Origin: Minisyncoccota bacterium
GTDB taxonomy: Bacteria; Patescibacteriota; Minisyncoccia; Phycocordibacterales; Phycocordibacteraceae
Assembly (NCBI GenBank): GCA_022842945.1
Contig: JALHOO010000003.1
Location: forward strand, 80,458-112,505
Direction: 5' to 3'
DNA: 32,048 bases
The notes under the pieces were generated by a model. That model was not told the DNA's origin, searched no databases, and was given only the letters and a program-made list of their open reading frames with translations. A program made the translations under genes and the position numbers. Of this stretch, positions 58 through 30,304 are shown piece after piece (position 1 is the stretch's first letter; every line of letters begins with the position of its first letter).

Positions 58-207
58 TCAACGAGGGCGGTCGTGACGCGATGTACTGTCTCCCTTGAGA
101 AGCAGGACGAGCGCAACGACACATAAGAGTCCGCTGACGCTGACTATCATGATGTTGTCGCTGATCGGGCCTGAGACCATTCCAAGGAGCTCACGAATGT
201 TACTCAT
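58..207 (-). CDS. small hydrophobic membrane peptide (49 aa), function unknown
   Basis: SD AGGGAG (220..215) lies 7 nt upstream of the ATG at 207. Hydrophobic helix IMIVSVSGLLCVVALVLLL. The stop sits inside hairpin 50-72. The ORF-track start at 270 has no RBS. Confidence 0.4.
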   Translation of the reverse strand: MSNIRELLGMVSGPISDNIMIVSVSGLLCVVALVLLLKGDSTSRHDRPR

Positions 208-288
208 GATCATACTCCCTTGTTCCTCAGATAGTGTATCAATCACTTGAATGCCAAAACCCGGTTTCAAACCGGGCTCTGGATAACT

Positions 289-364
289 TGGTGCGCGGTG
301 TAGGGATCGAACCTACTACCTCCACAACGTCAATGTAGCGCTCTACCAAGTGAGCTAACCGCGC
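289..364 (-). tRNA. tRNA-Val (anticodon GAC), CCA encoded
   Basis: Hand-folded cloverleaf. Acceptor GCGCGGT/ACCGCGC, D stem GCTC/GAGC, anticodon stem CTACA/TGTGG with loop TTGACGT, T arm GTAGG-TTCGATC-CCTAC, then A-CCA. Confidence 0.9.
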
Positions 365-365
365 A

Positions 366-1061
366 TCATGTTCTAGAGGTATCGGGAGCGATTCCCTCAC
401 AGAAACTTTTTGCAATGTACATTAGTCTGCGACGTATTTCAACTTTGCCGCAACTGATTGCGCAGACACCCTTGTAGTGTGGGTAAGTAGACTTCCCATG
501 AGTTCTCATGTCTATAGATGTTTTTCCAAAACTAGTTTCCGGTAGTTGAAGTTGTTCTGCCCAATAGCTTCTTAGTAATTCAGGGTTCTGATCAGCGCGA
601 AGATGTAAGTAGCACCTAATCTTATCAAATGGGACTCCATACAGACGTTTTAGGCTTTCTGCGAAGAAGCGTGCGATGGCAGGGTCTGAACTTCCAAGGG
701 AAGTTGTATCGCCCTTGGCACCCTCGCCAAGATAGAGAAACGCAAGAGCAAGTTCAATGATGTGCGGGTCTTGAGTATCAAGCTCTTCTAATACACGTCT
801 CCCTGACTCGTTCGCTGCTTCAATGCGTACTTCCTTCTGTGTGGTATGCCACACCGCAGCCTTTTGTCTTGCACGTACGAGCCCTTCTTTCGACTGACGT
901 ATTAGCTCTTGTTCTTGCTCCATTGTAAGTTGAATGGACTTGAACCAACCACTAAGAGTCGAACGAGGAATACCAAGCTCCCGTTCGATAGTGCCGATAG
1001 ACAGCCCTGATTGCCTGAGTTCTATGGCGCGTGAGCGCAATTGTTCGAATCGAGACCTCAT
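366..1061 (-). CDS. HTH (resolvase-type) plus LAGLIDADG-like domain protein, possible free-standing homing-endonuclease-like gene
   Basis: N-terminal LRQSGLSIGTIERELGIPRSTLSGWFK is HTH-like. Internal LAFLYLGEGAKGD resembles the LAGLIDADG motif. Start taken at the ATG at 1061, with TATTAT 6 nt upstream. The TGA stop is 1 nt from the tRNA-Val 5' end. Confidence 0.45.
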   Translation of the reverse strand: MRSRFEQLRSRAIELRQSGLSIGTIERELGIPRSTLSGWFKSIQLTMEQEQELIRQSKEGLVRARQKAAVWHTTQKEVRIEAANESGRRVLEELDTQDPHIIELALAFLYLGEGAKGDTTSLGSSDPAIARFFAESLKRLYGVPFDKIRCYLHLRADQNPELLRSYWAEQLQLPETSFGKTSIDMRTHGKSTYPHYKGVCAISCGKVEIRRRLMYIAKSFCEGIAPDTSRT

Positions 1062-1114
1062 GTATACATAATACACTCAGAAGTACGAGCTATTGTATGT
1101 GATACGCTCAATCT

Positions 1115-1738
1115 GTGGAAACCATTTGCTTAACAGGCTCAAGTATAGACAGCGCCGCAAAGAAAGCTGCGCAGGTACTTAAGAATGGAGGCATTGTCCT
1201 CTTCCCAACGGACACTCTCTACGGTCTTGCCGTTGATGTAACAAACCCTAAAGCACTGCAGCGTCTGCGGGACTTAAAGGGCAGGGAAAAGAAGAAGCCG
1301 ATATCGGTAATTGTATCGGGAGTAGATGGTATTTCTGCATATGCTCAGATGAACGATGCAGCTCGTGTGCTTGCCGAGCGCTTTCTTCCCGGAGCACTCA
1401 CCCTCGTGCTGCCAGCAACCTCAAAGATTCCTCAAGAAGTCACACTTAACGGATCTATAGGTATCCGTGTTCCTAACGATGCGTTCTGTCTTGCCCTTGC
1501 ACGTGCGTTTGGCAAACCCTACACCGCAACCAGCGCAAACAAGAGCGGACGTGAGACACCGGCAACAATTCGAGAGGTTATGCTGCAGTTCGGACACAGT
1601 GTGAACGAGATAGCACTCGCTATAGATGACGGAGACCGGAAGGGCAGAACCGGCTCAACGGTTGTGACGATGGTAGATGGTGTTCCGTATGTGCTTCGCG
1701 AAGGTGCTATTACAAAAGAAATGTTGAACGATACATAG
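1115..1738 (+). CDS. tsaC: L-threonylcarbamoyladenylate synthase (YrdC/Sua5/TsaC family)
   Basis: Motifs PTDTLYGLAVD, KGREKKKPISV, TATSANKSG, GSTVV. GTG start. Confidence 0.8.
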   Translation: METICLTGSSIDSAAKKAAQVLKNGGIVLFPTDTLYGLAVDVTNPKALQRLRDLKGREKKKPISVIVSGVDGISAYAQMNDAARVLAERFLPGALTLVLPATSKIPQEVTLNGSIGIRVPNDAFCLALARAFGKPYTATSANKSGRETPATIREVMLQFGHSVNEIALAIDDGDRKGRTGSTVVTMVDGVPYVLREGAITKEMLNDT

Positions 1739-1743
1739 GGAAA

Positions 1744-1769
1744 CGGCTCCGCCTGTTGGGGCGGAGCCG
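1744..1769. terminator. bidirectional stem-loop between convergent tsaC and the 1787..2071 gene
   Basis: cggctccgcc / ggcggagccg 10-bp stem with a 6-nt loop. Confidence 0.55.
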
Positions 1770-1786
1770 GCGGAAACTGCAGTTCC

Positions 1787-2071
1787 CTAGTAGTAGAGTT
1801 CTTCGCACGGGGTGGTGTAGTGGCGGCACACCGCGGCATAGGCGTCGTTGTTGCGACACGCCGTCATGGCGTTCGCCCGTGCCCGCCTGAGAATCTGGTG
1901 CGTGCCGAACCAGTTTCCACCCGCGGTATCATAGACCCAGCAGCGATACACCAGAACCCGGGTGGTTGCCGCCGCCGACGACTCGCCGGACGCGGAAATC
2001 GCCGGCGCGGGCGCCGCCGCGCTCAGAAGCAGGGCAGCCGCCAGAGCCGGCGCGATAAGAAATTTATTCAC
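1787..2071 (-). CDS. small secreted protein with 4 Cys (94 aa), orphan, GC-rich
   Basis: Signal peptide MNKFLIAPALAAALLLSAAAPAPA. SD AAGGAGA lies 6 nt upstream of the GTG start. About 66% G+C over 1861-1980 by hand count. The plus-strand Arg-rich ORF 1820..2086 is a shadow. Confidence 0.6.
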   Translation of the reverse strand: MNKFLIAPALAAALLLSAAAPAPAISASGESSAAATTRVLVYRCWVYDTAGGNWFGTHQILRRARANAMTACRNNDAYAAVCRHYTTPCEELYY

Positions 2072-2087
2072 GGGATGTCTCCTTGAG

Positions 2088-2109
2088 AGTTAAAAGGTAC
2101 GCGTACTGG
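2088..2109 (-). promoter_or_regulatory. copy 1 of shared element agttaaaaggtacgcgtactgg (core palindrome GTACGCGTAC 2097-2106)
   Basis: A near-identical 23-nt copy lies at 17515-17537. Both sit 25-32 nt upstream of an SD-led orphan gene on the minus strand. Confidence 0.5.
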
Positions 2110-2152
2110 TTCTGACCCTACCGTGCCGTGTGGGGTTTCGTCAACTTTAGAG

Positions 2153-2632
2153 CTACGACACCGGGAACCAACCCGTAGCCTTGCGACTAGTTGCAACCGA
2201 GTGTGTAAGTGGTTCTCCGCGTCCTGTTTCGCAGACAAGCTTCAAGCTCTGGAGTGCCTTCTCCCACTGATATCCTGTTATGCGATAGAACTCGGTTATC
2301 TCATTCCATCCACTTTGAGTGAAAGAGACAAGGGTGCCGCGCGAGGGGCTCTCCGCAAAGTCTATGCGTATGGTTGTAGGGAACTCAGACGCATCTTTGG
2401 AGAAGGTGCTTCGCAGTACGGTCCACGTAATCATCTTGTTCATACGGTAGTCCGTAATCGCAACGTGCGTCGCCTGGTCTGGTCCAAAGCCAAGCTTTAG
2501 TTCGCCACCTTTCTTTGGATCTCCCGTTATGTCGCGCGAGTACCAACTCCGCAGTCCTCCAAGGGTGGTCATCATCTCATACACCCGCCCTATAGGCATG
2601 GCTATGTCGACGGTGAAGGTGATCTTTTCCAT
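2153..2632 (-). CDS. SRPBCC/AHSA1-like (START-fold) domain protein
   Basis: 159 aa. The length and pattern (FTVDIAMPIGRVYEMMT..LRSWY..) resemble Aha1/SRPBCC-family proteins. Recognised by family resemblance only. Confidence 0.45.
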   Translation of the reverse strand: MEKITFTVDIAMPIGRVYEMMTTLGGLRSWYSRDITGDPKKGGELKLGFGPDQATHVAITDYRMNKMITWTVLRSTFSKDASEFPTTIRIDFAESPSRGTLVSFTQSGWNEITEFYRITGYQWEKALQSLKLVCETGRGEPLTHSVATSRKATGWFPVS

Positions 2633-2648
2633 AGGAGGGGGAAACGCG

Positions 2649-2670
2649 AAAGCGCCCCGAGGGGCGCTTT
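2649..2670 (-). terminator. stem-loop downstream of the cold-shock gene
   Basis: aaagcgcccc..ggggcgcttt inverted repeat. Confidence 0.5.
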
Positions 2671-2674
2671 TCGG

Positions 2675-2875
2675 TTAGACCTTGCTGACCTTGATCGCGT
2701 TCTGTCCCTTAGGACCTTCAGCGACTTCGAACTCGAGAGTGTCTCCCTCGCGAAGATCGTCAAAGTTGACGTTCACGAGCTCGTTAGAGTGGAAGAAAAG
2801 ATCCTTCGCTGCTCCTTCGATGCGGATGAATCCGAATCCCTTATCAGTAAGACCTGCAATTGTTCCCTGCTGCAT
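2675..2875 (-). CDS. cspA: cold-shock protein (CspA family)
   Basis: GTIAGLTDKGFGFIRIEG..DLFFHSNEL carries the RNP1 and RNP2-like motifs. 66 aa. Confidence 0.85.
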   Translation of the reverse strand: MQQGTIAGLTDKGFGFIRIEGAAKDLFFHSNELVNVNFDDLREGDTLEFEVAEGPKGQNAIKVSKV

Positions 2876-3025
2876 ATGCGATGTGTTGTTGAGAGCACCT
2901 AAGTAAGTATCAATGAGGCTGGATATCGAAACTACGATTTCCGTACTACTTACTCAGCGCTACGTTGATAGCACCAGACTACTACAATCGTATTATTTTG
3001 TCAACTCATGTCTGTGGGTCGCACA

Positions 3026-3054
3026 AAGCCCCGGACCAAGATGGTCCGGGGCTT
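3026..3054 (-). terminator. intrinsic terminator of the lipoprotein gene
   Basis: aagccccggacc / ggtccggggctt 12-bp stem with a 5-nt loop, followed by TTTG on the minus strand. Confidence 0.6.
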
Positions 3055-3069
3055 GATAGCAGGCCGAAA

Positions 3070-3408
3070 CTAGGTGTTCGGCCGACAAGTGGTATTGGCC
3101 AGCTGGCCCATGTTGTAGGTCGCGATGCAGCTGTAACGGTTTCCGTTGCCGGTGTCGGCCGTCCAGGCCAGCTTCATCATCTCGGGGTTGTGGCGATTCA
3201 GAATCTGGATGCTCGCCGCCAGGATCATGGGCTGGTCGTTGTCCTGAAGCCACTGAGCCGTGACATTCTGGAGGGTGCTGTCGGGCGCCTGGCCGAGTCC
3301 GAACGGAGTCGCGTTTGCCATGGCGAGCACAGCGTTGTTCACGGTGCCACAGCCGGAGAGCGCGACGGCCGCGAGGCCGCAGAGAACGGTCATCTTGAAA
3401 GTACGCAT
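3070..3408 (-). CDS. lipoprotein (112 aa), orphan, GC-rich
   Basis: Start moved to the ATG at 3408 (MRTFKMTVLCGLAAVALSGC) with a lipobox LSGC. SD AAGGAG lies 7 nt upstream. Confidence 0.6.
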   Translation of the reverse strand: MRTFKMTVLCGLAAVALSGCGTVNNAVLAMANATPFGLGQAPDSTLQNVTAQWLQDNDQPMILAASIQILNRHNPEMMKLAWTADTGNGNRYSCIATYNMGQLANTTCRPNT

Positions 3409-3509
3409 CGTAAGGCTCCTTGATGCTGCCGCCACAGTGACGTTACGGTCTGCTAAAGAGCAGAACCACAGCTTTTCGTACGGAATCTTTTGGACCCGTA
3501 TCTGATAGG

Positions 3510-3538
3510 GTTATACGTTATTTAGATAACTCAGTCAA
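3510..3538 (-). promoter_or_regulatory. sigma70-like promoter for the lipoprotein gene
   Basis: TTGACT, 17 nt, TATAAC on the minus strand. Confidence 0.4.
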
Positions 3539-3568
3539 ATGATATTTTGATAGGTCTTGCCTTAAAAT

Positions 3569-4862: not shown

Positions 4863-4959
4863 CTAAAGAGACTCGAAGAGAGTCAGATCACCACCTTCAC
4901 AGCACAGCCAAGCTGTGCCTTGGTTTGGGTGTGTCGGCGGTGAAAGGTACAATGGCTTT

Positions 4960-6507
4960 ATGCGCGTCCAGACTCTCCGCCTGCTCGACTTCAAGCGTTT
5001 TCACGACCTCACAATCGACCTGACAACTAGGTCCACGAAAATCGTCGCCATCGTCGGGCCCAACGGCTCCGGCAAGAGCAGTGTGTTCGACGCGTTTGAA
5101 GAGATCGGAAGTTTTCAAAAAGGGCGAGGGGGCAAGTTAGAGGCTTACTACAAAAAATCTGCCCACGACCCGGCCGGTCCGGTTGTGCCAGGCTACGACG
5201 TTCATCGCTCTGTTCAGTTGGTGACCGACCCGGCCGAACTGACGCGTACGAGTATTTATATTCGAAGCGCGTACCGGTTCACGGCTCGGCTCGGTGTCGG
5301 GCAAATTCGCCAACTCCCTGACGCCGAAGCGGATGGTAACAGACCGCAGTATCTGATCGATACCGACGCGAGGCTCACCGAAAATTACGAGCGCCTAATC
5401 GGCCGCTTTTTCGGAGAGGTCTACAATAAGGACGTGAAGGGCGACGAGTGGGTCACGGCCAACATCGAAGGCATCAACGTTGTCCTGAGGGAGGTTCTGG
5501 ATATCCAAATATCCGACCTCGGTAACCCCGTCGAAGGGCAGGGGAGCCTGTACTTCGATAAGGGCACGTCGCGAAAATTTCCATACGAGAACCTTTCCGC
5601 GGGCGAGAAGGAGGTCGTCGACCTAGTGCTCGATCTCTACGTGAAGCGGACGATCTACACCGACAGCATCATTTGCATCGACGAGCCTGAGCTCCACCTC
5701 AACACGGCCATTCAGCGCCGACTTCTCATCGAACTCGAGAAGCTGGTACCCGATGGTTCTCAGCTTTGGGTGGCGACCCACAGCATCGGGTTCCTGCGCG
5801 CACTCCAAGAGGAGCTTCGAGACAATACAACGGTTCTCGATTTCAGCGATATCGATTTTGATGCGCCACATACGATCGTGCCGATCGCCGGGTCGCGTGC
5901 GGACTGGTCTCGCATATTCGCAACGGCGCTTGAGGACCTGACAGGTCTCCTTGCGCCTAGGCGGATCGTCTACTGCGAAGGACGTCCTGATCCGGGCGTG
6001 AACGGCGAAGAGCAAGGTCTCGACGCCGATGTGTACAACACGATTTTCCAGGAAGGGCACGGCGACACCCTGTTCGTGTCGAGCGGAGGTGGCGGAGAAG
6101 TCTCAAGGAATGCCCTTCTCGCGATGCGGATTCTCGGCAAGGCCCTCAGGGATGTGCGTCTCGATATTCTGAAAGACCGAGACCAACTTTCTGAAGCTGA
6201 GCGCGATGCCTTTCTTGCTGAGGACCCTTCGAAACGGATGCTGCGCCGGCATGAGCTGGAAAACTACTTGTTCGACAAAGAGGTGTTGCAAGCCTTCTGC
6301 GCCGGCAGGGGTGGAGCGCTTGATGAGGCTCGCTACGACGCAGCAGTGAATGACGTCCTTATGCAAGATCTCAAACTGGTCCAGCAGGAGATACAGGCCG
6401 CCTGCGCCTTCAGGGGAAACATGCCCGAATTTAAACGTGCCCTAGCATCCGCCTTCGACCCCGCGTTCGCGGTCTACCAGGATCTGGAAGCCTCCATCTT
6501 TCCCTAG
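4960..6507 (+). CDS. ABC-type (RecF/SMC-like) ATPase fused to a Toprim/DUF4435-like C-terminal domain; OLD-family or PARIS-like defence candidate
   Basis: Walker A GPNGSGKS, signature LSAGEKEV, Walker B IICIDEPELHL, VATHS. The C-terminus carries RIVYCEGRPD, SSGGGGEV, ILKDRDQL and HELENYLF. Start taken at the ATG at 4960 (MRVQTLRLLDFKRF). Confidence 0.65.
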   Translation: MRVQTLRLLDFKRFHDLTIDLTTRSTKIVAIVGPNGSGKSSVFDAFEEIGSFQKGRGGKLEAYYKKSAHDPAGPVVPGYDVHRSVQLVTDPAELTRTSIYIRSAYRFTARLGVGQIRQLPDAEADGNRPQYLIDTDARLTENYERLIGRFFGEVYNKDVKGDEWVTANIEGINVVLREVLDIQISDLGNPVEGQGSLYFDKGTSRKFPYENLSAGEKEVVDLVLDLYVKRTIYTDSIICIDEPELHLNTAIQRRLLIELEKLVPDGSQLWVATHSIGFLRALQEELRDNTTVLDFSDIDFDAPHTIVPIAGSRADWSRIFATALEDLTGLLAPRRIVYCEGRPDPGVNGEEQGLDADVYNTIFQEGHGDTLFVSSGGGGEVSRNALLAMRILGKALRDVRLDILKDRDQLSEAERDAFLAEDPSKRMLRRHELENYLFDKEVLQAFCAGRGGALDEARYDAAVNDVLMQDLKLVQQEIQAACAFRGNMPEFKRALASAFDPAFAVYQDLEASIFP

Positions 6508-6603
6508 TCGGTTAGCGCATGCGGGCGTCTGAAGCATTCGCGGCCTCAAACAGAGTCGTTTGACCCCCTTCTATGCACAGGCGCGCATGAGACCATTGCC
6601 TCA

Positions 6604-6765
6604 ATGGGACTTAGTCCAGAGGAACTCCAGACCTTCAAGGACGCCTACAAAAAGGCATTCCAGGAAGATCTCGACGATGCCGAAGCATCCGATCTGGCCT
6701 ACCGCCTGCAAGAACTCTATCGGCTCATACTGACGAAGCCGGATGTGTGCGCCTCAACGGATTGA
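6604..6765 (+). CDS. small helical acidic ORF (53 aa), unknown; in frame with the preceding ATPase gene
   Basis: MGLSPEELQTFKDAYKKAFQEDLDDAEASDLAYRLQELYRLILTKPD reads like real coding sequence. No SD. Same frame as 4960..6507, with no stop between the TAG at 6505 and 6763. Confidence 0.3.
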   Translation: MGLSPEELQTFKDAYKKAFQEDLDDAEASDLAYRLQELYRLILTKPDVCASTD

Positions 6766-6850
6766 TCATCAGTCACGACACCATACTTCCTAAGCAACGA
6801 AAACGCCGCCCAGGGATGCTGGGCGGCGTTGGTCAATTTCGAAGGCTTGC

Positions 6851-7024
6851 TCAGAGAGCCCTGCGGAACATGCGGATGCAGTTACGACCGTTCTCTTCTG
6901 CCACGTCTTTTGGTAACGCGGGACGGTCTTCGAGCTGTGGCTCGCGCCAAGCCAAGAACCGGTTGAGGACGGTGTCGGCCTGCATCTCTTCAGCCGTAGG
7001 TAGGTCGCGTGGACGAACTAGCAT
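6851..7024 (-). CDS. small ORF (57 aa), unknown
   Basis: SD AAGGAG lies 7 nt upstream of the ATG at 7024. The ORF-track start at 7084 lacks an RBS. Confidence 0.3.
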   Translation of the reverse strand: MLVRPRDLPTAEEMQADTVLNRFLAWREPQLEDRPALPKDVAEENGRNCIRMFRRAL

Positions 7025-7255
7025 AGCAATGCTCCTTCGCTGTCTGAAACTGTTGTCCAAATGAAGTATACCGTGTTTCAGCATACTGGGGATGTCAGGG
7101 ACTTCGGGGACGTTGATTTAGCGTTATGCGGCGTCCGTCAGCTCGTCGGATGCAATCACGTCTCGTATCTCTTCGAGTGCCTCACCCCGTTTGCTACTCT
7201 TGGTGTGTGCTAGCATTTCCTCAAGCCACACCTCGGCCTCTTCCGGAGGCTGATA

Positions 7256-7290
7256 AGTTCGAACGTCATCTACCTGCCCCCGCTAAAAGA
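7256..7290 (+). repeat. degenerate copy of the tRNA-Ser 3' end and its flank (possible distal att remnant)
   Basis: agttcgaa..catctacctgcccccgctaaaaga compared with the tRNA end agttcgaatctccccctctccgctaaagaga at 4841-4870. AGTTCG matches, then 15 of 21 positions match after a 4-nt indel. Confidence 0.3.
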
Positions 7291-12391: not shown

Positions 12392-12418
12392 ATCATACCA
12401 GCCAAAAGGAGCTTGCAA
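12392..12418 (-). promoter_or_regulatory. putative ftsZ promoter
   Basis: TTGCAA, 15 nt, then TGgTATGAT extended -10 on the minus strand, about 40 nt upstream of the ATG. Confidence 0.4.
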
Positions 12419-12488
12419 AGACTGACAAAAACAGGAAACGTGCTGTAAATAAAGCGTCACATTGGGGCGTCTGAGAGAAAAAATGAAA

Positions 12489-12511
12489 CCCCGGCGCTAA
12501 AAGCGCCGGGG
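12489..12511 (-). terminator. intrinsic terminator inside the ftsA-ftsZ spacer
   Basis: ccccggcgc / gcgccgggg 9-bp stem with a 5-nt loop, followed by TTTCATTTTTTC on the minus strand. Confidence 0.8.
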
Positions 12512-12512
12512 C

Positions 12513-12699
12513 ATACTCCATTTCGGCGTCCCGTGGAGTGCGGGATGAAGGACCCGAAGTCCATCTCGGCGATGCCTTACGAACGAACAGCGCGTCGCAT
12601 GGGCGATCTCCCTCGGATCCGTTCTTGCTACGGGCTGTAGCTGTTTGCTCGGTCCAGTATTGATGATGAGGTATCAAGTACAGGACGTCAATGTAGTAT
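12513..12699 (-). ncRNA. candidate structured RNA (ftsA 3'UTR-derived or independent sRNA), class unknown
   Basis: No credible ORF. Long-range closing helix 12513-12532 / 12683-12699 (about 14 bp). Internal hairpins GCUAC-AGCCC-GUAGC, enclosed by GGACCG/CGGAUCC, and GGAC-UUCG-type. Ends at the terminator 12489-12511. Confidence 0.45.
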
Positions 12700-14588: not shown

Positions 14589-14623
14589 TAAATAGGGGTT
14601 TTCTGTCTAGGAAGGGTGCAGAA

Positions 14624-14654
14624 ACGCCCGCGGCCTTGGAGGGCGCGCGGGCGT
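14624..14654 (-). terminator. stem-loop after the GC-rich membrane-protein gene
   Basis: acgcccgcg / cgcgggcgt 9-bp stem with a 13-nt loop, then TTTCTG. Confidence 0.45.
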
Positions 14655-14663
14655 GTGTGGCGG

Positions 14664-15071
14664 CTAGTCTGCCGCCCGGGTGGACCTGTGGTGTGTCCAC
14701 AGTTTGAAGCCCGTCAGGATGATGGCCAGGGCCATCAGGCCGTCGATCGACCAGAGGAACAGCATGATCGGCGCGTCCGGCGTGATGATGAGCATGGTGG
14801 TGGCGACTGCCAGTACCATGCCGAGCACCATGCAGGCGAGCGCGACGCCGAGCTTTTCCGAACGGTCGGTTTCCATGTCCATGGAACCGGTCAGGATGCC
14901 GAGGAAGCCGGCAGAGAATATGCCGTTTGTCACGAGCACCAGACCAGTCAGTGCGCCCTCCGTGCTCGCGGCCATCTGCTGAGGGGCAAGATACAGCAGA
15001 AAGCCCTGTGAGACGCAGACGATGGCGGCGCAGGTTGTGAGCCCCGACCAATTATTCCATGTCTTCTTCAA
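14664..15071 (-). CDS. 4-TM membrane protein (about 135 aa), orphan, GC-rich
   Basis: Start placed at the TTG at 15071, 6 nt after SD GGGAGA. Four hydrophobic helices. The other-frame ORFs here (14551..15051, 14616..15011, 14680..14982) are shadows. Confidence 0.5.
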   Translation of the reverse strand: MKKTWNNWSGLTTCAAIVCVSQGFLLYLAPQQMAASTEGALTGLVLVTNGIFSAGFLGILTGSMDMETDRSEKLGVALACMVLGMVLAVATTMLIITPDAPIMLFLWSIDGLMALAIILTGFKLWTHHRSTRAAD

Positions 15072-15134: not shown

Positions 15135-15162
15135 ATTATACATAAATCTTAAAGATTGTCAA
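15135..15162 (-). promoter_or_regulatory. consensus sigma70 promoter for the membrane-protein gene
   Basis: TTGACA, 16 nt, TATAAT on the minus strand, directly after the hisS-like stop codon. Confidence 0.6.
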
Positions 15163-16875: not shown

Positions 16876-16938
16876 GCGCGCATTGTATTCCTCTGAATCT
16901 GCACGTCAACTTTTTGAACGTTTGACAGTAAACAGAAA

Positions 16939-16966
16939 CTCCCCGTCGCGCATGCGCGACGGGGAG
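16939..16966 (-). terminator. intrinsic terminator of the 16972..17493 gene
   Basis: 13-bp stem ctccccgtcgcgc / gcgcgacggggag, then TTTCTGTTT on the minus strand. Confidence 0.7.
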
Positions 16967-16971
16967 CGTTT

Positions 16972-17493
16972 CTAGTTCACATGGATCTGTGACACCGCCA
17001 GGAACTTTCTGACAAATGCCATGCCGCAATTCGTCCCGAGCCACTGGATGGTTGAGTTGATAACCTGTACATCCCGCGGCGTGAACTTCTCTCCTTCGCC
17101 CATGATGGCGTGTATAGCGGTCCTGCCGTAGTTCGTGCAGTGCTCCGGTATGCACTCGATCTCCCAGAGTTCGGCGATGATCCTTTCCGGGTTTCGTTGA
17201 GGCCAATCGAGTCGCGAGACAGAATGGGAAAGGCGTAACGAAAGCTTGGCATGAGATCTCCGCCGCTCATTTCTGGGCACATGCGGAAAATCTTGAGGCC
17301 GAGCCCGAGAGCTGTATTGAACGACCGGTTGCTGCGACCGTTCGACAATGCGTTGCAAGCCGGTAAAGGCTTCCTTGTAGGGGATAGTTCCCTTGTCGAT
17401 GCGTCGTACAATCTCGTCGACACGTCTGTGAAGACCCCCGAGCTCTTCGTTCGTGAGTCTAACCGTCTCCGACAGCTGTGGTGCCGTCTCCAT
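16972..17493 (-). CDS. hypothetical cytoplasmic protein (173 aa), orphan
   Basis: ATG at 17493 with AGAAGGA upstream. Has its own terminator. I recognise no family. Confidence 0.5.
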   Translation of the reverse strand: METAPQLSETVRLTNEELGGLHRRVDEIVRRIDKGTIPYKEAFTGLQRIVERSQQPVVQYSSRARPQDFPHVPRNERRRSHAKLSLRLSHSVSRLDWPQRNPERIIAELWEIECIPEHCTNYGRTAIHAIMGEGEKFTPRDVQVINSTIQWLGTNCGMAFVRKFLAVSQIHVN

Positions 17494-17514: not shown

Positions 17515-17537
17515 AGTTAAAAAGGTACGCGTACTGG
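17515..17537 (-). promoter_or_regulatory. copy 2 of shared element agttaaaaaggtacgcgtactgg (core palindrome GTACGCGTAC 17526-17535)
   Basis: Identical to 2088-2109 apart from one extra A. Lies downstream of a TTGACT-17-TGAGAT promoter-like pair (17570..17542). Confidence 0.5.
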
Positions 17538-17594
17538 GCGCATCTCATCACTTATGGCTCTAACAGTCAAATACTCCAAGGCCGGTTCAGTCGA

Positions 17595-17603
17595 TGTTAG
17601 AAT
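17595..17603 (+). promoter_or_regulatory. extended -10 TGtTAGAAT, 7 nt upstream of the pth ATG (leaderless-type)
   Basis: Plus strand reads gaTGTTAGAAT, gcttgta, ATGGCA. Confidence 0.5.
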
Positions 17604-17610
17604 GCTTGTA

Positions 17611-18210
17611 ATGGCACACGTACTCATCGGCCTTGGAAACCCTGGCGGCGAATATGAGAAAACCCGGCACAATGCCGGAAGGATGGTTGCAGAACTCTTT
17701 GCCGAGGAAGAGGAGTTCGAAGACTTCAAGCTAAAGAAGAGTGCGCAGGCTCTTGTAACAGACGGTGCGGTAGACGGAAAGAAAGTGCAGATAGCACTGC
17801 CTGAGGTATACATGAATCTTTCTGGAAAGACGGCACTCGCACTTGTGAAGTCAAAGCCTGCTGCAAAGAAGCTTCTCGTTATCCGCGACGATCTCGACCT
17901 TCCTCTCGGAATAATCAAGATGACAACCTACGGACGCGGTGCCGGAGGACACAAGGGCGTAGAGAGCATCATGCGTGCACTTAAGACCAAGGATTTTGTA
18001 CAGATAAAGATTGGTATCGCTGGAAGCACTCCAAAAGGAAAGCTCAAGAAAGTCTCTGGAGAAGAGAAAGTAATTAGCCACGTAATAGGGAAGTTCAATC
18101 CTGCAGAGGAAGCAGTGCTCAAGAAGACCTTGAAGAAGGCATCTGTAGCTGCGCGTCTCTTTGTTACAGACGGAGTGGAGAAGGCAATGCTGTTTGCGAA
18201 CACAAAGTAG
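17611..18210 (+). CDS. pth: peptidyl-tRNA hydrolase
   Basis: LIGLGNPGGEYEKTRHNAG, YMNLSG. Start moved to the ATG at 17611 (MAHVLIGLGNPG). Confidence 0.9.
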   Translation: MAHVLIGLGNPGGEYEKTRHNAGRMVAELFAEEEEFEDFKLKKSAQALVTDGAVDGKKVQIALPEVYMNLSGKTALALVKSKPAAKKLLVIRDDLDLPLGIIKMTTYGRGAGGHKGVESIMRALKTKDFVQIKIGIAGSTPKGKLKKVSGEEKVISHVIGKFNPAEEAVLKKTLKKASVAARLFVTDGVEKAMLFANTK

Positions 18211-18262
18211 CGTTTTATGTAGCGCATGGTAGATTCCATGCGGAACAGATAGGGAGGTCTCC

Positions 18263-18610
18263 GTGAGTGAACATAGACGAATAAAGCCTGAGCATCTCGA
18301 AACGCTGACCGAACATCACCTTGCGGGCTTTCACCTGCATCGGACGTTTCCAATCTTCGTGCGCTACAGGAAGATTGGGTTGAACTCTCGCGGGTCCCGG
18401 TATCAGCTGGAACTGTCGCCTTTGGGACACTTTCCTCCGCTTTCGGTTACTGGCGGTTTGCCGACGTCGGAAGGCGCGATTGCTTGGTGGCAGGATAGCG
18501 ACCTCGCAGACTGCCTCGACCAGATAATCGTCAAGACGTATTCTGGCCAGGGCGAGTATCAATCCTTCACTCTTGGAGGAAACGGCAAGGTCATACCCAA
18601 GGGCGGATAA
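18263..18610 (+). CDS. hypothetical protein (115 aa), orphan
   Basis: SD GGGAGG lies 5 nt upstream of the GTG at 18263. The competing minus ORF 18215..18649 would have to start inside or upstream of the S1 terminator. Confidence 0.4.
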   Translation: MSEHRRIKPEHLETLTEHHLAGFHLHRTFPIFVRYRKIGLNSRGSRYQLELSPLGHFPPLSVTGGLPTSEGAIAWWQDSDLADCLDQIIVKTYSGQGEYQSFTLGGNGKVIPKGG

Positions 18611-18615
18611 CGAAA

Positions 18616-18643
18616 ACACCCGGAGCAGTAATGCTCCGGGTGT
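18616..18643 (-). terminator. intrinsic terminator of the S1 gene
   Basis: acacccggagc / gctccgggtgt 11-bp stem, then TTTTCGTT on the minus strand. Confidence 0.75.
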
Positions 18644-18660
18644 CTCCAATTTAATACTTG

Positions 18661-19934: not shown

Positions 19935-19961
19935 AGCCCCCGTCCATTTTGGACAGGGGCT
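19935..19961 (-). terminator. intrinsic terminator upstream of rpsA (ends the small-peptide transcript)
   Basis: agcccccgtcc / ggacaggggct stem with one mismatch, then TTTTTCTTT on the minus strand. Confidence 0.65.
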
Positions 19962-20121
19962 GTGCTTTCTGAAGTACTTGGGTACGAGCCCTGAGTCAAC
20001 GCCGGTCCCATAGACCGAAGTGAACGCATATCAGGGTGCCTCGTGGCAATGCTCCTTTCTGGCCGCAGCCTTCAGGGGTTTCGTGGCGCCGACATTCGTG
20101 TCAGACGCCGCCGCGCATCGA

Positions 20122-20241
20122 TCAGGTCGCGCAGATCAGGCCGGAGACGCCGGCCGCGGCGCCCAGGGCGATGTCGTCGTTGTTCACGAGGCTCTTGAAG
20201 CTTCCGGTGCCCACGTGGCCCGGCGGATGGAAGTTACGCAT
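20122..20241 (-). CDS. small peptide (39 aa) with a hydrophobic Gly/Ala-rich C-terminus; not in the ORF track
   Basis: MRNFHPPGHVGTGSFKSLVNNDDIALGAAAGVSGLICAT. SD GGGAGA lies 5 nt upstream of the ATG. Own promoter and terminator. About 70% G+C over 20101-20220 by hand count. Confidence 0.45.
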   Translation of the reverse strand: MRNFHPPGHVGTGSFKSLVNNDDIALGAAAGVSGLICAT

Positions 20242-20295
20242 AACTGTCTCCCTTGCTTGCTTTGACATCCCGACCATCGGGCTCGTAGCTCGGAT

Positions 20296-20323
20296 AACTT
20301 ACCATACCCTCAGATATTGTCAA
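20296..20323 (-). promoter_or_regulatory. sigma70 promoter for the 39-aa peptide
   Basis: TTGACA, 16 nt, then TGgTAAGTT on the minus strand. Confidence 0.55.
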
Positions 20324-20576
20324 TACCCCTGTGGATATGGTCTAAAACAGAAAACCCACCCAAAAGGGCAGGCAAGTGAGGGAGCTAATCTTCCGGTATC
20401 GGTACCCGGACAACGAACCGATATTCATGACCCGAAAGATCAGCTCCCCGCGCGGCAGTCTTCTGCGCGCTCCCTCTACGCTAACACCTCGAACCTGGGA
20501 GGAAAGACATTCTCCCTGTGCACAGCCCCTGACTTCCCTACCTACTCCCTCTTCTTTGCGGTATAATGAGGGGAAC

Positions 20577-26827: not shown

Positions 26828-26828
26828 T

Positions 26829-27125: not shown

Positions 27126-27171
27126 TGCATAAGGGGTTGTTGCTTCCGTATATCCTGTTACGCTTCACTAT

Positions 27172-27549
27172 ATGAAAACTTTCGCTACTGTTCTGGCTCT
27201 TGGCCTGTTCGCCGTTACAAACACTGTTTATGCCCAGAATGGGGAGATTGGAGGCTCTACTCTCGGGGCATACCTTGAGAGCATTCGTGACTTCATCAAC
27301 ATCTATCTCATTCCGTTCCTGTTCGCTATCGCGTTCATCGTCTTCATTTGGGGAATATTCCAGTACTTCATTGCAGGAGGTGCGAACGAAGAACAGCGCG
27401 ACAAGGGAAAGCAGCTCGTTATGTGGGGAATCATTGGTTTCGTTATTATGGTCTCGGTCTGGGGTCTTGTTAACCTTGTTACGAACACCTTTAACTTAAA
27501 CAATGACAGTAGTGATCTGGAGCTTCCAACCTTCGATATAGCAAATTAA
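27172..27549 (+). CDS. pilin-like two-TM secreted protein, paralog 3
   Basis: Signal peptide ..NTVYAQ. PFLFAIAFIVFIWGIFQYFIAGGANEEQRDKGKQLVMWGIIGFVIMVSVWG. Confidence 0.65.
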   Translation: MKTFATVLALGLFAVTNTVYAQNGEIGGSTLGAYLESIRDFINIYLIPFLFAIAFIVFIWGIFQYFIAGGANEEQRDKGKQLVMWGIIGFVIMVSVWGLVNLVTNTFNLNNDSSDLELPTFDIAN

Positions 27550-27653
27550 CGCGGGAATTCGTTTTCCACACGTATTTCCTAGCTCTATTGACGCACTGCC
27601 ATTCCGGTCTATCCTATAGCTATACGCCATCGCGTTACCCGTAATCAAACATT

Positions 27654-28016
27654 ATGAAGAAACTAGGTTATCTCAGTGCAGCGTTCGCTCTCTCGTTCCC
27701 GCTCATGGCGGCTGCGCAGGTGAATGCAACAAACGTGCAGAACCTCGGCCAGGGTCTCATCGGTCTTATCAACAACGTTGCGGTACCGCTTCTTTTCGCT
27801 ATCGCGTTCATTGTCTTCATCTGGGGAGTATTCCAGTACTTCATTGCAGGAGGACATGACGAGGAGAAGCGCGAGACCGGAAAGAGCCTCATGCTCTGGG
27901 GAATCATCGGATTCTTCATCATGGTCTCGGTATGGGGTCTCGTGAACATCCTTCGCGGAACGTTCAACTTTGACGACAGCATCGATTACGGACAGGAGCT
28001 TCCTGAAAGGCGCTAG
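27654..28016 (+). CDS. pilin-like two-TM secreted protein, paralog 4
   Basis: Signal peptide ..LMAAAQ. PLLFAIAFIVFIWGVFQYFIAGGHDEEKRETGKSLMLWGIIGFFIMVSVWG. 56 of 59 nt identical to paralog 3 over 27795-27853 versus 27322-27380. Confidence 0.65.
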   Translation: MKKLGYLSAAFALSFPLMAAAQVNATNVQNLGQGLIGLINNVAVPLLFAIAFIVFIWGVFQYFIAGGHDEEKRETGKSLMLWGIIGFFIMVSVWGLVNILRGTFNFDDSIDYGQELPERR

Positions 28017-28036
28017 CTCAAACGCTCTCTCCACAC

Positions 28037-28064
28037 AAAAGCCCGCGCTATTGCGCGGGCTTTT
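28037..28064 (+). terminator. intrinsic terminator after paralog 4
   Basis: aaaagcccgcgc / gcgcgggctttt 12-bp stem with a 4-nt loop and a T-tract. Confidence 0.75.
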
Positions 28065-28072
28065 GCTATAGT
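28064..28072 (+). promoter_or_regulatory. extended -10 TGCTATAGT, 6 nt upstream of the paralog-5 ATG (leaderless-type)
   Basis: Plus strand reads tTTGCTATAGT, tcatgt, ATG. Confidence 0.45.
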
Positions 28073-28078
28073 TCATGT

Positions 28079-28327
28079 ATGAGCCCCTTCCAGACCTTCA
28101 TCGGCAAAGTACAGGCAGAAATTCTGACCCCCATCATCACCCTCCTTACCCTTGGAGCGTTTCTTATATTCCTCTGGGGTATTGTTGAGTTCATTGCGGG
28201 TGCTACAAACGAAGAGAAGCGTGCTGCAGGCCAGCAACATATGATCTGGGGCATCATTGGCCTCGTTATTATATTTGGTGCGAACGCTATCGTGTCTCTG
28301 CTTAAGGCAACGGTTGGAGCAACCTAG
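28079..28327 (+). CDS. pilin-like two-TM protein, paralog 5 (no signal peptide)
   Basis: PIITLLTLGAFLIFLWGIVEFIAGATNEEKRAAGQQHMIWGIIGLVIIFG is the same core as paralogs 1-4, but the protein starts directly at the pre-TM1 segment. Confidence 0.6.
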   Translation: MSPFQTFIGKVQAEILTPIITLLTLGAFLIFLWGIVEFIAGATNEEKRAAGQQHMIWGIIGLVIIFGANAIVSLLKATVGAT

Positions 28328-28347
28328 AGGTGTGTCTGTATAAAAAT

Positions 28348-28381
28348 GAGCCCGCGCTTCCAGTTAAGGAATCGCGGGCTC
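28348..28381. terminator. stem-loop between the convergent pilin array and the SPFH operon
   Basis: gagcccgcg / cgcgggctc 9-bp stem with a 16-nt loop. Confidence 0.45.
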
Positions 28382-28400
28382 GAAGTTTTGAACAAGGTGC

Positions 28401-29144
28401 TTAACCCGAATACGGTTCACGCCAGACTGCGAGGTTGAGTGCGATATTGCTCTTCGATTGGACCCGAACAGCAACGTACTTTTCGCACGCTTCCACGCTC
28501 CAGTTATGGACCACTCCTTTGCGGTCCATGCACTGATAGATGTAGCCGATCTTGGTTACATCAGACTCGGTGTCCGTACAGTCCAAATCGTCGTTCGCTT
28601 CGCAGCTTACGATCTTCTGACCCGTTGCGGCATATACCCAGTCAGACCATCCATCTCCTTGTGCAGGCGCCTCAAGAGGCGAAGGTACGTAGAGGGTGGG
28701 TGCGCTAGCTGAGGTGAACGTAGCGGACGGCATGGTGCCGGTGTTCGCGTTGATAGCGGCACGCGCCTCACGGGAAAGGCCGGGAGTTTGTCCGAACCCC
28801 ATCGAGGCCAGCCAAGGCACGACGATGAACCATACGAAGGCACCGACGACTGCCAGGGCTCCAGTCGTCTTAAGCAGGGCAAGCCAGAAGGGATCGCCAT
28901 GTCCGTGGGAGTCGTGACCCCCGCCACCCTTTGTGGGGTGATGGGGATCAGGATGTCCGGCGACCGGATGGTCGCCAGGTTTCTTCTCTTTTGTCGGAGC
29001 CTTCGGCTTCTTGTGGCCGACTCTTCGAGCGAGGATAATGCTTCCGACAATAACAGCAATTAGCCAAAGAAGTAGCCCGAAGGCGACGATGATGACAAAG
29101 CCCCACAGGATGAACCCGCCGAGCGTTTGAGCGGCTTCTTCCAA
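28401..29144 (-). CDS. membrane protein with a His-rich linker and a Cys-containing extracytoplasmic C-terminal domain (247 aa), orphan
   Basis: TTG start 6 nt after SD AGGAGAG and 11 nt after the SPFH stop. TM1, then KKPKAPTKEKKPGDHPVAGHPDPHHPTKGGGGHDSHGHGD, then TM2-3, then a domain with 4 Cys. Confidence 0.55.
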   Translation of the reverse strand: MEEAAQTLGGFILWGFVIIVAFGLLLWLIAVIVGSIILARRVGHKKPKAPTKEKKPGDHPVAGHPDPHHPTKGGGGHDSHGHGDPFWLALLKTTGALAVVGAFVWFIVVPWLASMGFGQTPGLSREARAAINANTGTMPSATFTSASAPTLYVPSPLEAPAQGDGWSDWVYAATGQKIVSCEANDDLDCTDTESDVTKIGYIYQCMDRKGVVHNWSVEACEKYVAVRVQSKSNIALNLAVWREPYSG

Positions 29145-29155
29145 CAGATTCTCTC

Positions 29156-30304
29156 CTATGGTTTAGTGCTGGCTGGTTTGCCGATAGTTCCGATAGCGTC
29201 AACAAGAGCCGATGGTACGACAAAAGTCGTTCCTTGGCCCATTGCCTCTGTAACGAGAATCTTCTCGCTCAGCGGCTGATTGGTCTCCATCGCCCGAAGA
29301 CGGGCAGTGATGGCGACGGCTTCAGCTCTTGCCTTCATTCTCGTTTCAAGCGCGGTAGCTCCAGCCCTGACAACAGTGTCATAGGCCGCAGCATTGGCGC
29401 CTGTCCTGACCGTCTCAGCATTCCGATCGGCAGTGTACGCCGCAAGACTGAGTCTCTCGTTCTCAGCGGCAGCTGCACCGCTAAGGACGATGGACTCGAG
29501 GTTCGCAGCCTTGATCGTTACGCCGATGTGGCCCTTAAGGCCCCTACGGTCTTTTTCATCGAGCCCGCATTCTTCTTCCTCAGGCAGACAGAGTGTCAGC
29601 TTTTGGATTGGAATGGAGAAGTTCTCCTTCTCGCAATTCTTCCCTTCGTCCGTTTCCGAACGAAGTTGGTCATAGGTGAAGGTGCCGATGAAGTTCCGTC
29701 CAATGCGATCTACATACGACTCGAGCTGAGTGCGCCAATCGTTTGATTCGAAGAGCGCCTTGTAGGGGTTCGTGATGCGGACGATGATGACGAATTCAGC
29801 TCGAACCGGGAGCATGTCCCGGGTCTTCGCGTCTTCGATAACCATGACATACGAGAAGTCGTTTGCGACGAATACCTCCGTCTCTTCCTCTCGATGCCAG
29901 ACATCACGCCCACCTTCAAGATTCGTCCGGTACTCGTTCCAGACGAAGTCGTACTTGTAGACTTCGCGCATGCCCGGAATCCCGACCCAGAAGAGGCCGA
30001 AGCTACGCGTGTACTGAGGCCGGGTTTCGTAGTTCTTGCCCGGCTTATTTGGAAGCACTTCCCATTCAGGCTCGTTCTCGTCGAAGTGGGGTTTACCTCG
30101 TTCGTTCAGATGGTAGCCGCGGAAGGAGAGAATCGCACGGTGAAAGGACTTGCCCTTCGCGATGATCTTTCCCTTGCCCTCAGGAACCTTCGTGTAAAGA
30201 AGGTTGGAATTCGCCGAGGTGCTCAGCAAGAACGGTGTGGCGATGTATGCACCACCGGCTGCAACAATAAGAGCGGCGGTCGCGGTCGCGGTAAGGATGC
30301 TCAT
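29156..30304 (-). CDS. SPFH/band-7 (prohibitin/flotillin-like) domain membrane protein
   Basis: N-terminal TM. VRAEFVIIVRITNPYKALF and IGVTIKAANLESIV are SPFH-like strands. Ala-rich coiled-coil tail. SD GAGGG lies 8 nt upstream. Confidence 0.55.
   Translation of the reverse strand: MSILTATATAALIVAAGGAYIATPFLLSTSANSNLLYTKVPEGKGKIIAKGKSFHRAILSFRGYHLNERGKPHFDENEPEWEVLPNKPGKNYETRPQYTRSFGLFWVGIPGMREVYKYDFVWNEYRTNLEGGRDVWHREEETEVFVANDFSYVMVIEDAKTRDMLPVRAEFVIIVRITNPYKALFESNDWRTQLESYVDRIGRNFIGTFTYDQLRSETDEGKNCEKENFSIPIQKLTLCLPEEEECGLDEKDRRGLKGHIGVTIKAANLESIVLSGAAAAENERLSLAAYTADRNAETVRTGANAAAYDTVVRAGATALETRMKARAEAVAITARLRAMETNQPLSEKILVTEAMGQGTTFVVPSALVDAIGTIGKPASTKP

Follow-up and report, generated by a model that had tools for sequence, protein, structure and literature searches.

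The window analysed here is a stretch of 32,048 nucleotides (C3:80458-112505) of the 694-kb (0.69-Mb) genome, labelled G000, of a Minisyncoccota bacterium of the family Phycocordibacteraceae (assembly GCA_022842945.1). It carries a series of conserved backbone genes, and between these lie nine small gene units, here named U1 to U9, with U9 consisting of the two genes U9a and U9b. A Shine-Dalgarno (SD) box of the GGAG, GAGG or AGGA type precedes every unit gene except that of an ATPase in U4, in a genome whose 16S rRNA lacks the anti-SD sequence CCUCC. The lowercase name u8 denotes a different gene, located outside the window (G000:C3:72208-72885).

The genome is assembled in four contigs and is 99.5% complete with 0.04% contamination; it has a GC content of 0.524 and one 16S gene. 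By Pfam, the backbone of the window encodes Sua5, AHSA1, a cold-shock protein (CSD), a Na/Ca exchanger, TrxB, FtsZ, FtsA, YbeY, S21, a HisS-like protein, LepB, Pth, S1, a metallo-beta-lactamase-fold protein (LactB), GyrA, a methyltransferase, a solute-binding protein and Alr, together with an array of five T4SS-pilin genes (PF18895). Seven tRNAs are present. The small size of the genome, the pilin array and a 16S tail of the kind published for part of the Parcubacteria assign this uncultured bacterium to the CPR/Patescibacteria, Parcubacteria type. An Rfam scan of the window matched tRNAs only, and the GC-rich stretches are thus not known RNA genes. The comparison set consists of nine congeners with GyrA 74-93% identical, including those labelled G020, G021, G024, G026, G028, G036 and G063, and of a near-identical strain represented by contig L081. 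16S tails were aligned for 29 relatives, namely 22 species of the genus and seven other families of the order.

Judged by its sequence features, a typical unit would be built from its own sigma-70-type promoter, a leader of 30-100 nt, a GGAG-type box 6-8 nt from the start, a gene whose small product is exported or resides in the membrane, and a terminator hairpin. The first-pass annotation of this DNA had given each unit a promoter of its own and most units a terminator. Such elements are seen for most of them, e.g. the 12/12 promoter of U5 and the 13-bp terminator stem of U6. The TGn extended -10 element, described there as the common style, occurs in U6, U8 and U9a and is absent from U2 and U5.

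Table 1. Units of the window. Promoters, leaders and hairpins are predicted; the limits of swapped segments were mapped against contig L081. Composition (GC content, its percentile among same-length windows across the whole genome, and GC content at third codon positions, GC3) refers to the interval in the fifth column.
Feature	Position	Strand	Elements and product	Interval for composition	GC	Percentile	GC3	Class
U1	58..207	-	49-aa candidate open reading frame (ORF) beside tRNA-Val; GGAG 7 nt before ATG	58-207	0.54	58		ordinary
U2 unit	1740..2144	-	TTGACG-N18-TAGGGT promoter; AAGGAGA 7 nt before GTG; downstream hairpin; ORF 1787-2071, 94 aa, signal peptide, 4 Cys	1787-2071	0.653	99.8	0.78	outlier
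U3 unit	3025..3540	-	AAGGAG 7 nt before ATG; ORF 3070-3408, 112 aa, lipobox L-S-G-C; terminator hairpin	3070-3408	0.619	99.4	0.84	outlier
U4 islet	4864..7290	+	tRNA-Ser 3' end; ORF 4960-6507, fused ABC-ATPase/Toprim	4960-7290	0.565	98.6		marginal
U5 swapped segment	14630..15136	-	leader (~55 nt); GGGAGA 7 nt before TTG; ORF 14664-15071, 135-aa multi-pass membrane protein; terminator hairpin ~14616-14650	14664-15071	0.610	99.3	0.82	outlier
U5 promoter	15135..15162	-	TTGACA-16-TATAAT (12/12), one base past the HisS-like stop					
U6 swapped segment	16915..17594	-	TTGACT...TGaTGAGAT promoter; AAGGA 8 nt before ATG; ORF 16972-17493, 173 aa, soluble orphan; terminator 16938-16967 (13 bp)	16972-17493	0.554	82		ordinary
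U7 gap	18211..18660	+	GGGAGG 6 nt before GTG; ORF 18263-18610, 115 aa, soluble orphan; hairpin after	18263-18610	0.546	71		ordinary
U8 gap	19948..20375	-	TTGACA-N16-TGgTAAGTT promoter; leader ~50 nt; GGGAGA 6 nt before ATG; ORF 20122-20241, 39-aa peptide	20122-20241	0.675	99.8	0.90	outlier
U9 two-gene unit	28401..30402	-	beside tRNA-Leu; TTGACT-N18-TGgTATACT promoter					
U9a	29156-30304	-	SPFH/Band-7 gene preceded by GAGG	29156-30304	0.551	85		ordinary
U9b	28401-29144	-	247-aa His-rich membrane protein preceded by AGGAGAG	28401-29144	0.573	96.9		marginal

Composition and turnover of the units

At least nine units had been called GC-richer than the backbone, partly from hand counts. These counts agree exactly with the computed values (0.658, 0.700 and 0.483), but the claim as such was overstated, since only four units stand out clearly; the U4 islet and U9b are marginal cases, and three units are not GC-rich. 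The outliers U2, U3, U5 and U8 are members of a genome-wide tail of about 12 genes with a GC3 of at least 0.75; the mean over the genes of the genome is 0.565 (standard deviation 0.074). Each GC-rich island of at least 300 bp in the genome coincides with a gene of this tail. The codon usage of the tail (GGC 0.69, CTG 0.39, CCG 0.55, GTC 0.45, GCC 0.42, CGG 0.29, GAA 0.46) is unlike that of bulk genes and unlike that of ribosomal-protein genes, and GC at second codon positions (GC2) is raised. With GC-rich congeners considered as a source, the overall codon correlation is high (r = 0.92), but the choices for Leu, Arg and Glu differ, the congeners favoring CTC, CGC and GAG.

Two other causes of the high GC3 were rejected. 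Expression-optimised codons do not fit, as the ribosomal-protein genes favor GCT, GGT/GGA, CTC/CTT and CCT/CCA and the units GCC, GGC, CTG and CCG. By our own reasoning, biased gene conversion would leave the rise in GAA, the raised GC2, the sharp boundaries limited to genes and the SD boxes unexplained.

In the regions of the nine congeners that are syntenic with the window, backbone GC3 spans 0.42-0.88 while gene order stays conserved. It should be noted that such a spread inside one genus is unusually wide for genomes this small. In the same gaps, variable genes have a lower GC content than the backbone where the latter is GC-rich and a higher one where it is GC-poor, and the flexible pool therefore has a composition of its own, with a GC3 of roughly 0.45-0.9, mostly 0.55-0.85.

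The gene string TrxB-FtsZ-FtsA-YbeY-S21-HisS-LepB-Pth-S1-LactB-hyp129-GyrA-methyltransferase-solute-binding protein-pilins is conserved in the nine congeners. The proposal that the units sit in gaps of conserved gene strings is thereby confirmed. Homologues of U1 to U8 are missing from all of these congeners. In their place, the four gaps contain no gene at all (9-60 bp) or genes of another kind, mostly behind AGGAGG-type boxes. In brief, the U5 site is empty (58 bp) in G021, and the U7 gap is empty or holds other genes. The U8 gap holds GC-rich, SD-led genes of 349-355 aa in G021 and G020 and nothing in G024, G026 and G036. Homologues of U9, 44% and 27% identical, are found in the same place in G021, and the position after the pilin array is taken by a different or diverged SD-led membrane-protein gene in all nine congeners.

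The gap between Pth and S1 holds a gene of 216-256 aa in G028, G063 and G021 (L057/58, L061/62 and L053/54, respectively), with a GC content of 0.63, 0.46 and 0.54 that follows the genome. The copies in G028 and G063 are preceded by AGGAGG/GAGGAG boxes and are linked by BLASTP; the G021 copy, the only one in which a Nudix-type box is seen, was judged related by eye only.

Turnover is also seen at the level of strains. The backbone of contig L081 is 90-98% identical to the window at the nucleotide level, and its HisS-like protein, LepB and S21 are 98%, 99% and 100% identical, respectively. In L081, the U5 gap harbors an unrelated gene for a 100-aa membrane protein and the U6 gap an unrelated gene of 137 aa. 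U7 is shared at 91% amino-acid identity and is followed by an extra gene of 204 aa. At the U5 site, both cassettes have the same promoter and the same outer terminator arm, neither of which is present where the site is empty in G021. Because it is shared with a different cassette in L081, the U5 promoter belongs to the site and not to the cargo. The units had been described as domesticated on the basis of their promoters, which is partly right: at this site the promoter is the stable part, and it is the leader, SD box and ORF that are swapped. As the gaps of the congeners are empty or hold unrelated genes, and the content of L081 differs, the units are best described as swapped accessory cassettes at hot spots.

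Independent assemblies of individual sequencing runs (at least four runs) reproduce both junctions of U5 and the LactB-side junction of U8. The mosaic is therefore not an assembly chimera.

The 16S rRNA tail and the Shine-Dalgarno boxes

The sole 16S rRNA of the genome ends in ...GGAACAUAUCCAAU where the bacterial model has GGAUCACCUCCUUU (cmscan alignment), i.e. CCUCC has changed to UAUCC. The native UAUCC-bearing tail reads ...CAUAUCCAAU. Comparison of the 16S 3' end, which had been proposed as a check, thus reveals that the anti-SD has been lost from the single 16S gene, and CCUCC is likewise absent from the tail in all 29 relatives aligned. Loss of the anti-SD has been published for part of the Parcubacteria (PMC9297842), and the genome fits the "SD-scarce, no CCUCC" class (class iv) as described in the part of PMC10783764 cited here.

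Genome-wide, GGAG is found upstream of 6.1% of starts and of 6.1% of random sites, so that SD boxes are not enriched. Pairing with a canonical anti-SD is below random, with duplex energies of -6 kcal or lower in 17.9% of genes and 23.8% of random sites. The conserved genes have no SD because the 16S rRNA is without CCUCC. The motif TAnnnT, ending 5-8 nt before the start, is in turn found in 26.7% of genes compared with 3.2% of random sites, and the window backbone behaves likewise. Of the 173 genes of this type, 164 (95%) start with ATG and nine with GTG or TTG. A -10 box placed 5-8 nt before ATG is the signature of leaderless mRNAs, and on this criterion at least a quarter of the core genes look leaderless.

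The units follow another pattern. The box lies 6-8 nt from the start in all 16 SD-led units measured genome-wide, five of which start with GTG or TTG. Ten of the 12 genes with a GC3 of at least 0.75 have an SD box, compared with about 20-23% in the other GC3 classes, a count that permits any start within 25 codons. In the syntenic regions of ten genomes, all of them without anti-SD, a strong 5-mer SD at the longest start was found in one of 168 core genes and in 23 of 172 flexible ORFs. The distinction between SD-led units and an SD-less backbone is therefore stronger than had been claimed, and the window backbone is indeed SD-less apart from chance boxes upstream of the Na/Ca exchanger and TrxB ORFs. 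Starts chosen by the SD reproduce exactly the protein sequences on record (NCBI, Logan) for U2 to U9; U1 has no record. Since the 16S rRNA has no anti-SD, the SD-led class is a paradox rather than a regulatory nuance.

We searched for a partner of the boxes elsewhere. In the 330 nt downstream of 16S in 27 genomes, CUCC words are located in hairpin stems and are not conserved, and no conserved free CCUCC was found. A genome-wide search for GGATCACCTCCTT-like words gave only coding or antisense hits, with no intact anti-SD in an RNA-like context. A new SD matched to the organism's own tail (GGAUAU) was rejected as well, because pairing is not enriched and the enrichment of GATA upstream of genes is the -10 box. 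Read from the 16S alignment, the tail can pair with the box only through GGA:UCC plus interrupted pairs.

Nearly all genomes of the order that were read carry, about 150-260 nt beyond the end of 16S (L001 ~3100-3130), the motif GAATAGGCGGAACA(A/C)AAG or else a shorter core resembling CGGAACAAAAG. It precedes a terminator-like hairpin or a tRNA and could be an antitermination or processing element.

With the anti-SD-less, SD-scarce bacteria the genome shares a tail without CCUCC and the lack of a genome-wide SD signal. In the parts of PMC9297842 and PMC10783764 cited here, the residual 2-7% of SD-bearing genes are treated as background. In contrast to the bacteria as described there, the residue in this genome makes up one defined class, consisting of accessory units that are leadered, swappable and canonical in their spacing. 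A literature search found no description of a swappable SD-led accessory class in an anti-SD-less genome. The units share the spacing of the GGAG-type box with canonical SD-dependent genes and differ from these in lacking a complementary 16S anti-SD, whereas the genome at large appears to share with leaderless-dominated genomes the -10 box 5-8 nt before the start and the ATG starts. Bacteroidota genomes are likewise poor in SDs, with only a minority of genes bearing one. In most Bacteroidota the CCUCC tail is present but masked, whereas in the present genome CCUCC itself is mutated to UAUCC. Many Flavobacteriia are listed without a conserved CCUCC in the relevant part of PMC10783764.

Origin and function of the units

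We consider it likely that the units are horizontally swapped, flexible cassettes, encoding mostly envelope proteins, at hot spots between the largely leaderless core genes of an anti-SD-less bacterium. They would represent the flexible gene pool of the lineage, organized as self-contained expression units of one or two genes in a few intergenic gaps. Their cargo would be gained, lost and replaced horizontally, most likely by recombination through the conserved flanks after uptake of DNA. At the site between HisS and S21, an exchange would involve leader, SD and ORF and leave the promoter and the outer terminator arm in place. The units would be transcribed from the predicted promoters, most products would be exported, and they may act at the cell surface or in contact with a partner.

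Piecemeal horizontal acquisition had been put forward as one explanation, and as a process it is supported by the absence of the units from the nine congeners, the variable gaps, the different content of L081 and the foreign codon usage of the GC-rich subset. In two strains whose flanking genes are 98% identical at the protein level, the u8 alleles are only 71% identical, indicating that these were exchanged independently of the backbone.

Several known systems resemble the units. Phage morons are autonomous promoter-gene-terminator units between conserved genes of lambdoid prophages and often have a deviant GC content. The units are like morons in being single genes with their own promoter and terminator, in their conserved neighbours, in their deviant composition and in varying between close relatives. 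They differ in being located in the chromosome among ftsZ, rpsU, pth, rpsA and gyrA, with no prophage, and in that one promoter is part of the site. Chromosomal hot spots and flexible genomic islets are exchanged by homologous recombination of flanking core genes. As in these, a few gaps are variable, near-identical strains differ and mobility genes are missing, but the units, with one gene in 0.3-0.7 kb, are unusually small and uniform in their expression architecture, and they carry a translation signal that is unmatched by the host ribosome. Cassettes of integrons and of clusters of attC sites lacking integron integrases (CALINs) are also single-gene modules exchanged at fixed sites. The units differ from these in having no bounding repeat of attC or tRNA-Gln type and no integrase nearby, in being single and not arrayed, and in having a predicted promoter at the site of each unit.

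A number of observations weigh against swapped cassettes. The units are bordered by neither a recombinase nor att-like repeats or target duplications, and when the flanks of 16 units were compared by k-mers, no 10-mer was common to three or more units. This comparison, together with a repeat search of the window, returned only the -35 word ATTGACAA and an 18-nt element of U2 and U6 (see below). Sites that mimic tRNA-Gln, searched for with the last 25 nt of both tRNA-Gln genes and at most five mismatches, are absent from the window and were rejected as a unit boundary; the whole genome has seven such sites, two being the tRNA-Gln genes themselves. Five of the nine units are not GC-rich or only marginally so. 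No donor of the window units was identified among 5.8 billion protein clusters and 1.84 billion representative proteins. The small relatives of U3, U2 and u8 are found only in contigs of close relatives and in the same gene neighbourhood (MFS|U3|CSD|AHSA1, AHSA1|U2|Sua5 and LepA|122-aa|u8|glutaredoxin). These orthologues keep the SD and a GC3 of 0.79-0.93 though the proteins are only 38-65% identical, which suggests selection rather than a foreign signature that has not yet been erased. In every such neighbourhood, no other gene reaches the GC content of the unit.

The relatives themselves are few. U2 has one among the 5.8 billion clusters and u8 has two. The U2 homologue, in contig L071, is 65% identical, lies in the same AHSA1|unit|Sua5 neighbourhood, and has a GC3 of 0.84 and an AGGAGA box. 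For U3 there are seven among the 1.84 billion representatives, of which three are small lipobox proteins and the rest weak matches to giant adhesin-like repeat domains; a weak match was found in only one of 70 further species of the genus. The U3 family thus consists of four small proteins, always encoded upstream of CSD-AHSA1, with a GC3 of 0.79-0.93 and an SD in every member. The wording of the SD varies, from AAGGAG in this genome to AAGGAGG in L073 and GAGGTGA in L072 and L074-76.

These orthologues lend some support to the other explanation that had been offered, that of a distinct translational class, since they keep an SD of changing wording and a high GC3. In its full form this would be a native second class of translation, in which selection maintains the GGAG box and its reader is not the canonical 16S tail but, for instance, a ribosomal protein, a factor or a different segment of RNA. 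Initiation would follow a 30S-binding pathway on the leadered accessory genes, with the core genes being leaderless. This is compatible with horizontal swapping, and we regard it as a real possibility, though one we do not favor. The constant spacing of the box in 16 of 16 units argues for it, as do the GTG and TTG starts, with 5/16 in the units compared with 9/173 in the leaderless-type genes, the retention of the SD in every U3 family member and in the U2 and u8 orthologues, and the excess of strong SDs in the flexible ORFs of ten anti-SD-less genomes. In u8, 0.62 of the 4-fold sites are identical compared with ~0.38 expected from composition and 0.27 in the neighbouring gene, and the u8 leader is visibly better conserved than these sites (62% identical). 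Furthermore, the Nudix-like gene of the Pth|S1 gap and a membrane protein of 398/415 aa are SD-led both in G028 (GC3 0.88) and in G063 (0.42), where the SD of the 398-aa G028 gene rests on an ATG read four codons inside the longest ORF. Against it stand the failure to find an intact anti-SD word in an RNA-like context in the genome or a conserved free CCUCC downstream of 16S, and a pairing with the own tail that is not enriched and is reduced to GGA:UCC plus interrupted pairs. Also, few orthologous sets were compared, and a recent spread within the genus could mimic conservation.

The SD box is not the only signal whose usual reader is missing. The gene u8, at a distance of 8.2 kb before the window, is found between LepA and a glutaredoxin-like gene; it is SD-led, encodes a signal peptide, and has a GC content of 0.65 and a GC3 of 0.85. 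Two related contigs keep this LepA/glutaredoxin-like placement. Its product matches OMP_b-brl (PF13505) with 51.8 bits against a cut-off of 28.7. The predicted structure has eight long strands at a predicted local distance difference test (pLDDT) score of 71, and Foldseek matches it to OmpA, NspA, Ail and OmpX at E = 1e-7 to 1e-6. By this model, u8 is an eight-stranded barrel of the OmpA/OmpX type, sharing both profile and fold with these proteins. Omp85/BamA (PF01103) is absent from the genome and from all 60 relatives in the order that were searched.

The same applies to U3, which shares the lipobox of bacterial lipoproteins made by the Lgt/LspA pathway. The lipobox follows a hydrophobic N-terminus, and L17, S18 and C20 are invariant in the four-member family. 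As lipobox and cysteines are invariant across proteins that are 37-42% identical, the lipobox appears to have a function in the lineage. Lgt (PF01790) is absent from the genome and from 60 of 60 relatives, whereas the profile scores in 10 of 14 controls; the genome also has no LspA (PF01252). Lipobox and barrel signals are thus conserved without the matching machinery, the same mismatch as for the SD box. Several small proteins carry conserved lipoboxes although Lgt is absent from all 61 genomes of the order searched.

Based on these observations, we tentatively suggest that the accessory class keeps SD box, lipobox and OmpA-like barrel under selection in an order without CCUCC, Lgt and BamA (and, in this genome, LspA), an idea in which we place slightly less confidence than in a second class of translation. 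Either analogues would read these signals in the ultra-small cell itself, including a second, anti-SD-independent recognition of GGAG, or the promoter-SD-gene-terminator units would be built to work in a diderm partner cell, the latter being highly improbable.

The same mismatches would be accounted for if the GC-rich units had been taken directly and recently from a high-GC diderm, perhaps a host, with SD, lipobox, barrel and codons as functionless remnants of the donor. We consider this unlikely. The codon preferences and raised GC2 of the GC3 tail, which set it apart from the GC-rich congeners, would fit such a donor, as would an OmpA/OmpX-like barrel in an order without Omp85 and Lgt and a genome also without LspA. 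The only named matches outside the lineage are those of a KGG protein to proteins on plasmids of Hyphomicrobiales (56-80% identity), its only matches, and of u8 to an outer-membrane protein of Hyphomonas polymorpha (26% identity). Both are units from outside the window, and these matches are short or remote. Close homologues of the window units are missing from the clusters and representatives searched, the U2, U3 and u8 families are confined to contigs of the lineage and to one neighbourhood each, and the invariant lipobox and cysteines of U3 point to a function in the lineage. The suggestion of a high-GC host organism as source was thus not borne out, the outside relatives being alphaproteobacterial only and limited to two non-window units; a high-GC alphaproteobacterial source is a lead and not a result.

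It is very hard to believe that the units are an artefact, be it of chimeric assembly of a metagenome bin or of chance SDs in GC- or purine-rich upstream DNA chosen by gene callers, for although the genome is a four-contig assembly of metagenome type, contamination is 0.04%, independent assemblies reproduce the U5 junctions and one of U8, units of 120-700 bp lie within single contigs with backbone genes to either side, homologous units are found in the same neighbourhood in contigs from other studies, and both the frequency of SDs in GC3-rich genes (10/12 versus about 20% otherwise) and their constant spacing argue against chance.

Loss of the anti-SD in part of the Parcubacteria was already known, and variable genes at chromosomal hot spots are ordinary. 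Not found described before is that the residual SD-bearing genes form a coherent class of swappable, leadered, single-gene units, mostly for envelope proteins, with a box 6-8 nt from the start, tolerance of non-ATG starts and, for many units in this species, their own codon usage rich in G+C. With a functional box, these bacteria would initiate translation with a component that is missing from current models, and gene callers with an SD model would choose starts in their genomes for reasons that are not understood. If it is not functional, the units mark recent gene flow and could point to donors or partners of these organisms. The loss of Lgt and BamA beside conserved lipobox proteins and an OmpA-like barrel poses the same question for protein sorting.

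Further features of the window

The U4 islet is separate from the SD-led units. Its ATPase gene has no SD and is of the leaderless type, with a TACAAT box 6 nt before ATG, and is followed in the 3' part of the islet by about 780 bp of short, poorly coding ORFs. The protein matches PADLOC AriAB with 99.9 bits (E = 3.7e-29), AriA with 75.9 bits, and Pfam AAA_21 and AAA_15. We regard U4 as a candidate defence gene of the PARIS AriAB type, with an ATPase fused to a Toprim/DUF4435-like domain. Contig L080, from another assembly, contains a copy with 88% DNA identity whose surroundings differ, with no tRNA but a gene with an Mrr_cat domain next to it, which suggests that U4 is a mobile defence gene.

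The coding status of U1 is uncertain, since it is not GC-rich and has no protein record. The predicted structure of U3 consists of one helix on a four-stranded sheet, with no significant match in PDB. HMMER matches to HYR and I-set repeat proteins had made an Ig-like domain a candidate, which this predicted fold does not support. Directly after the terminator of U5 follows the promoter of the S21 gene. U6 has an atypical codon score despite its ordinary GC content.

The leaders of U2 (2092-2109) and U6 (17520-17537) share the 18-nt element CCAGTACGCGTACCTTTT, with the palindrome GTACGCGTAC, between -10 box and SD. There is no other exact copy in the genome, and a copy with two mismatches is located at G000:C4:659-676. 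The element may represent an operator or a leader module common to the two units.

The tail of the U8 peptide is rich in Gly and Ala and contains Cys (…GAAAGVSGLICAT). It resembles the precursors of small modified peptides; no modifying enzyme is encoded nearby.

The spacer between ftsA and ftsZ (346 nt; window 12393-12699) is locally GC-rich at 12489-12622. Its sole ORF scores as non-coding, and a strong terminator-like hairpin is found at 12488-12512 on the minus strand. The annotated start of the Pth ORF (17554-18210) is probably too far upstream. The L081 orthologue has 199 aa, and because similarity to L081 begins only at 17595, the start is likely the ATG near 17611.

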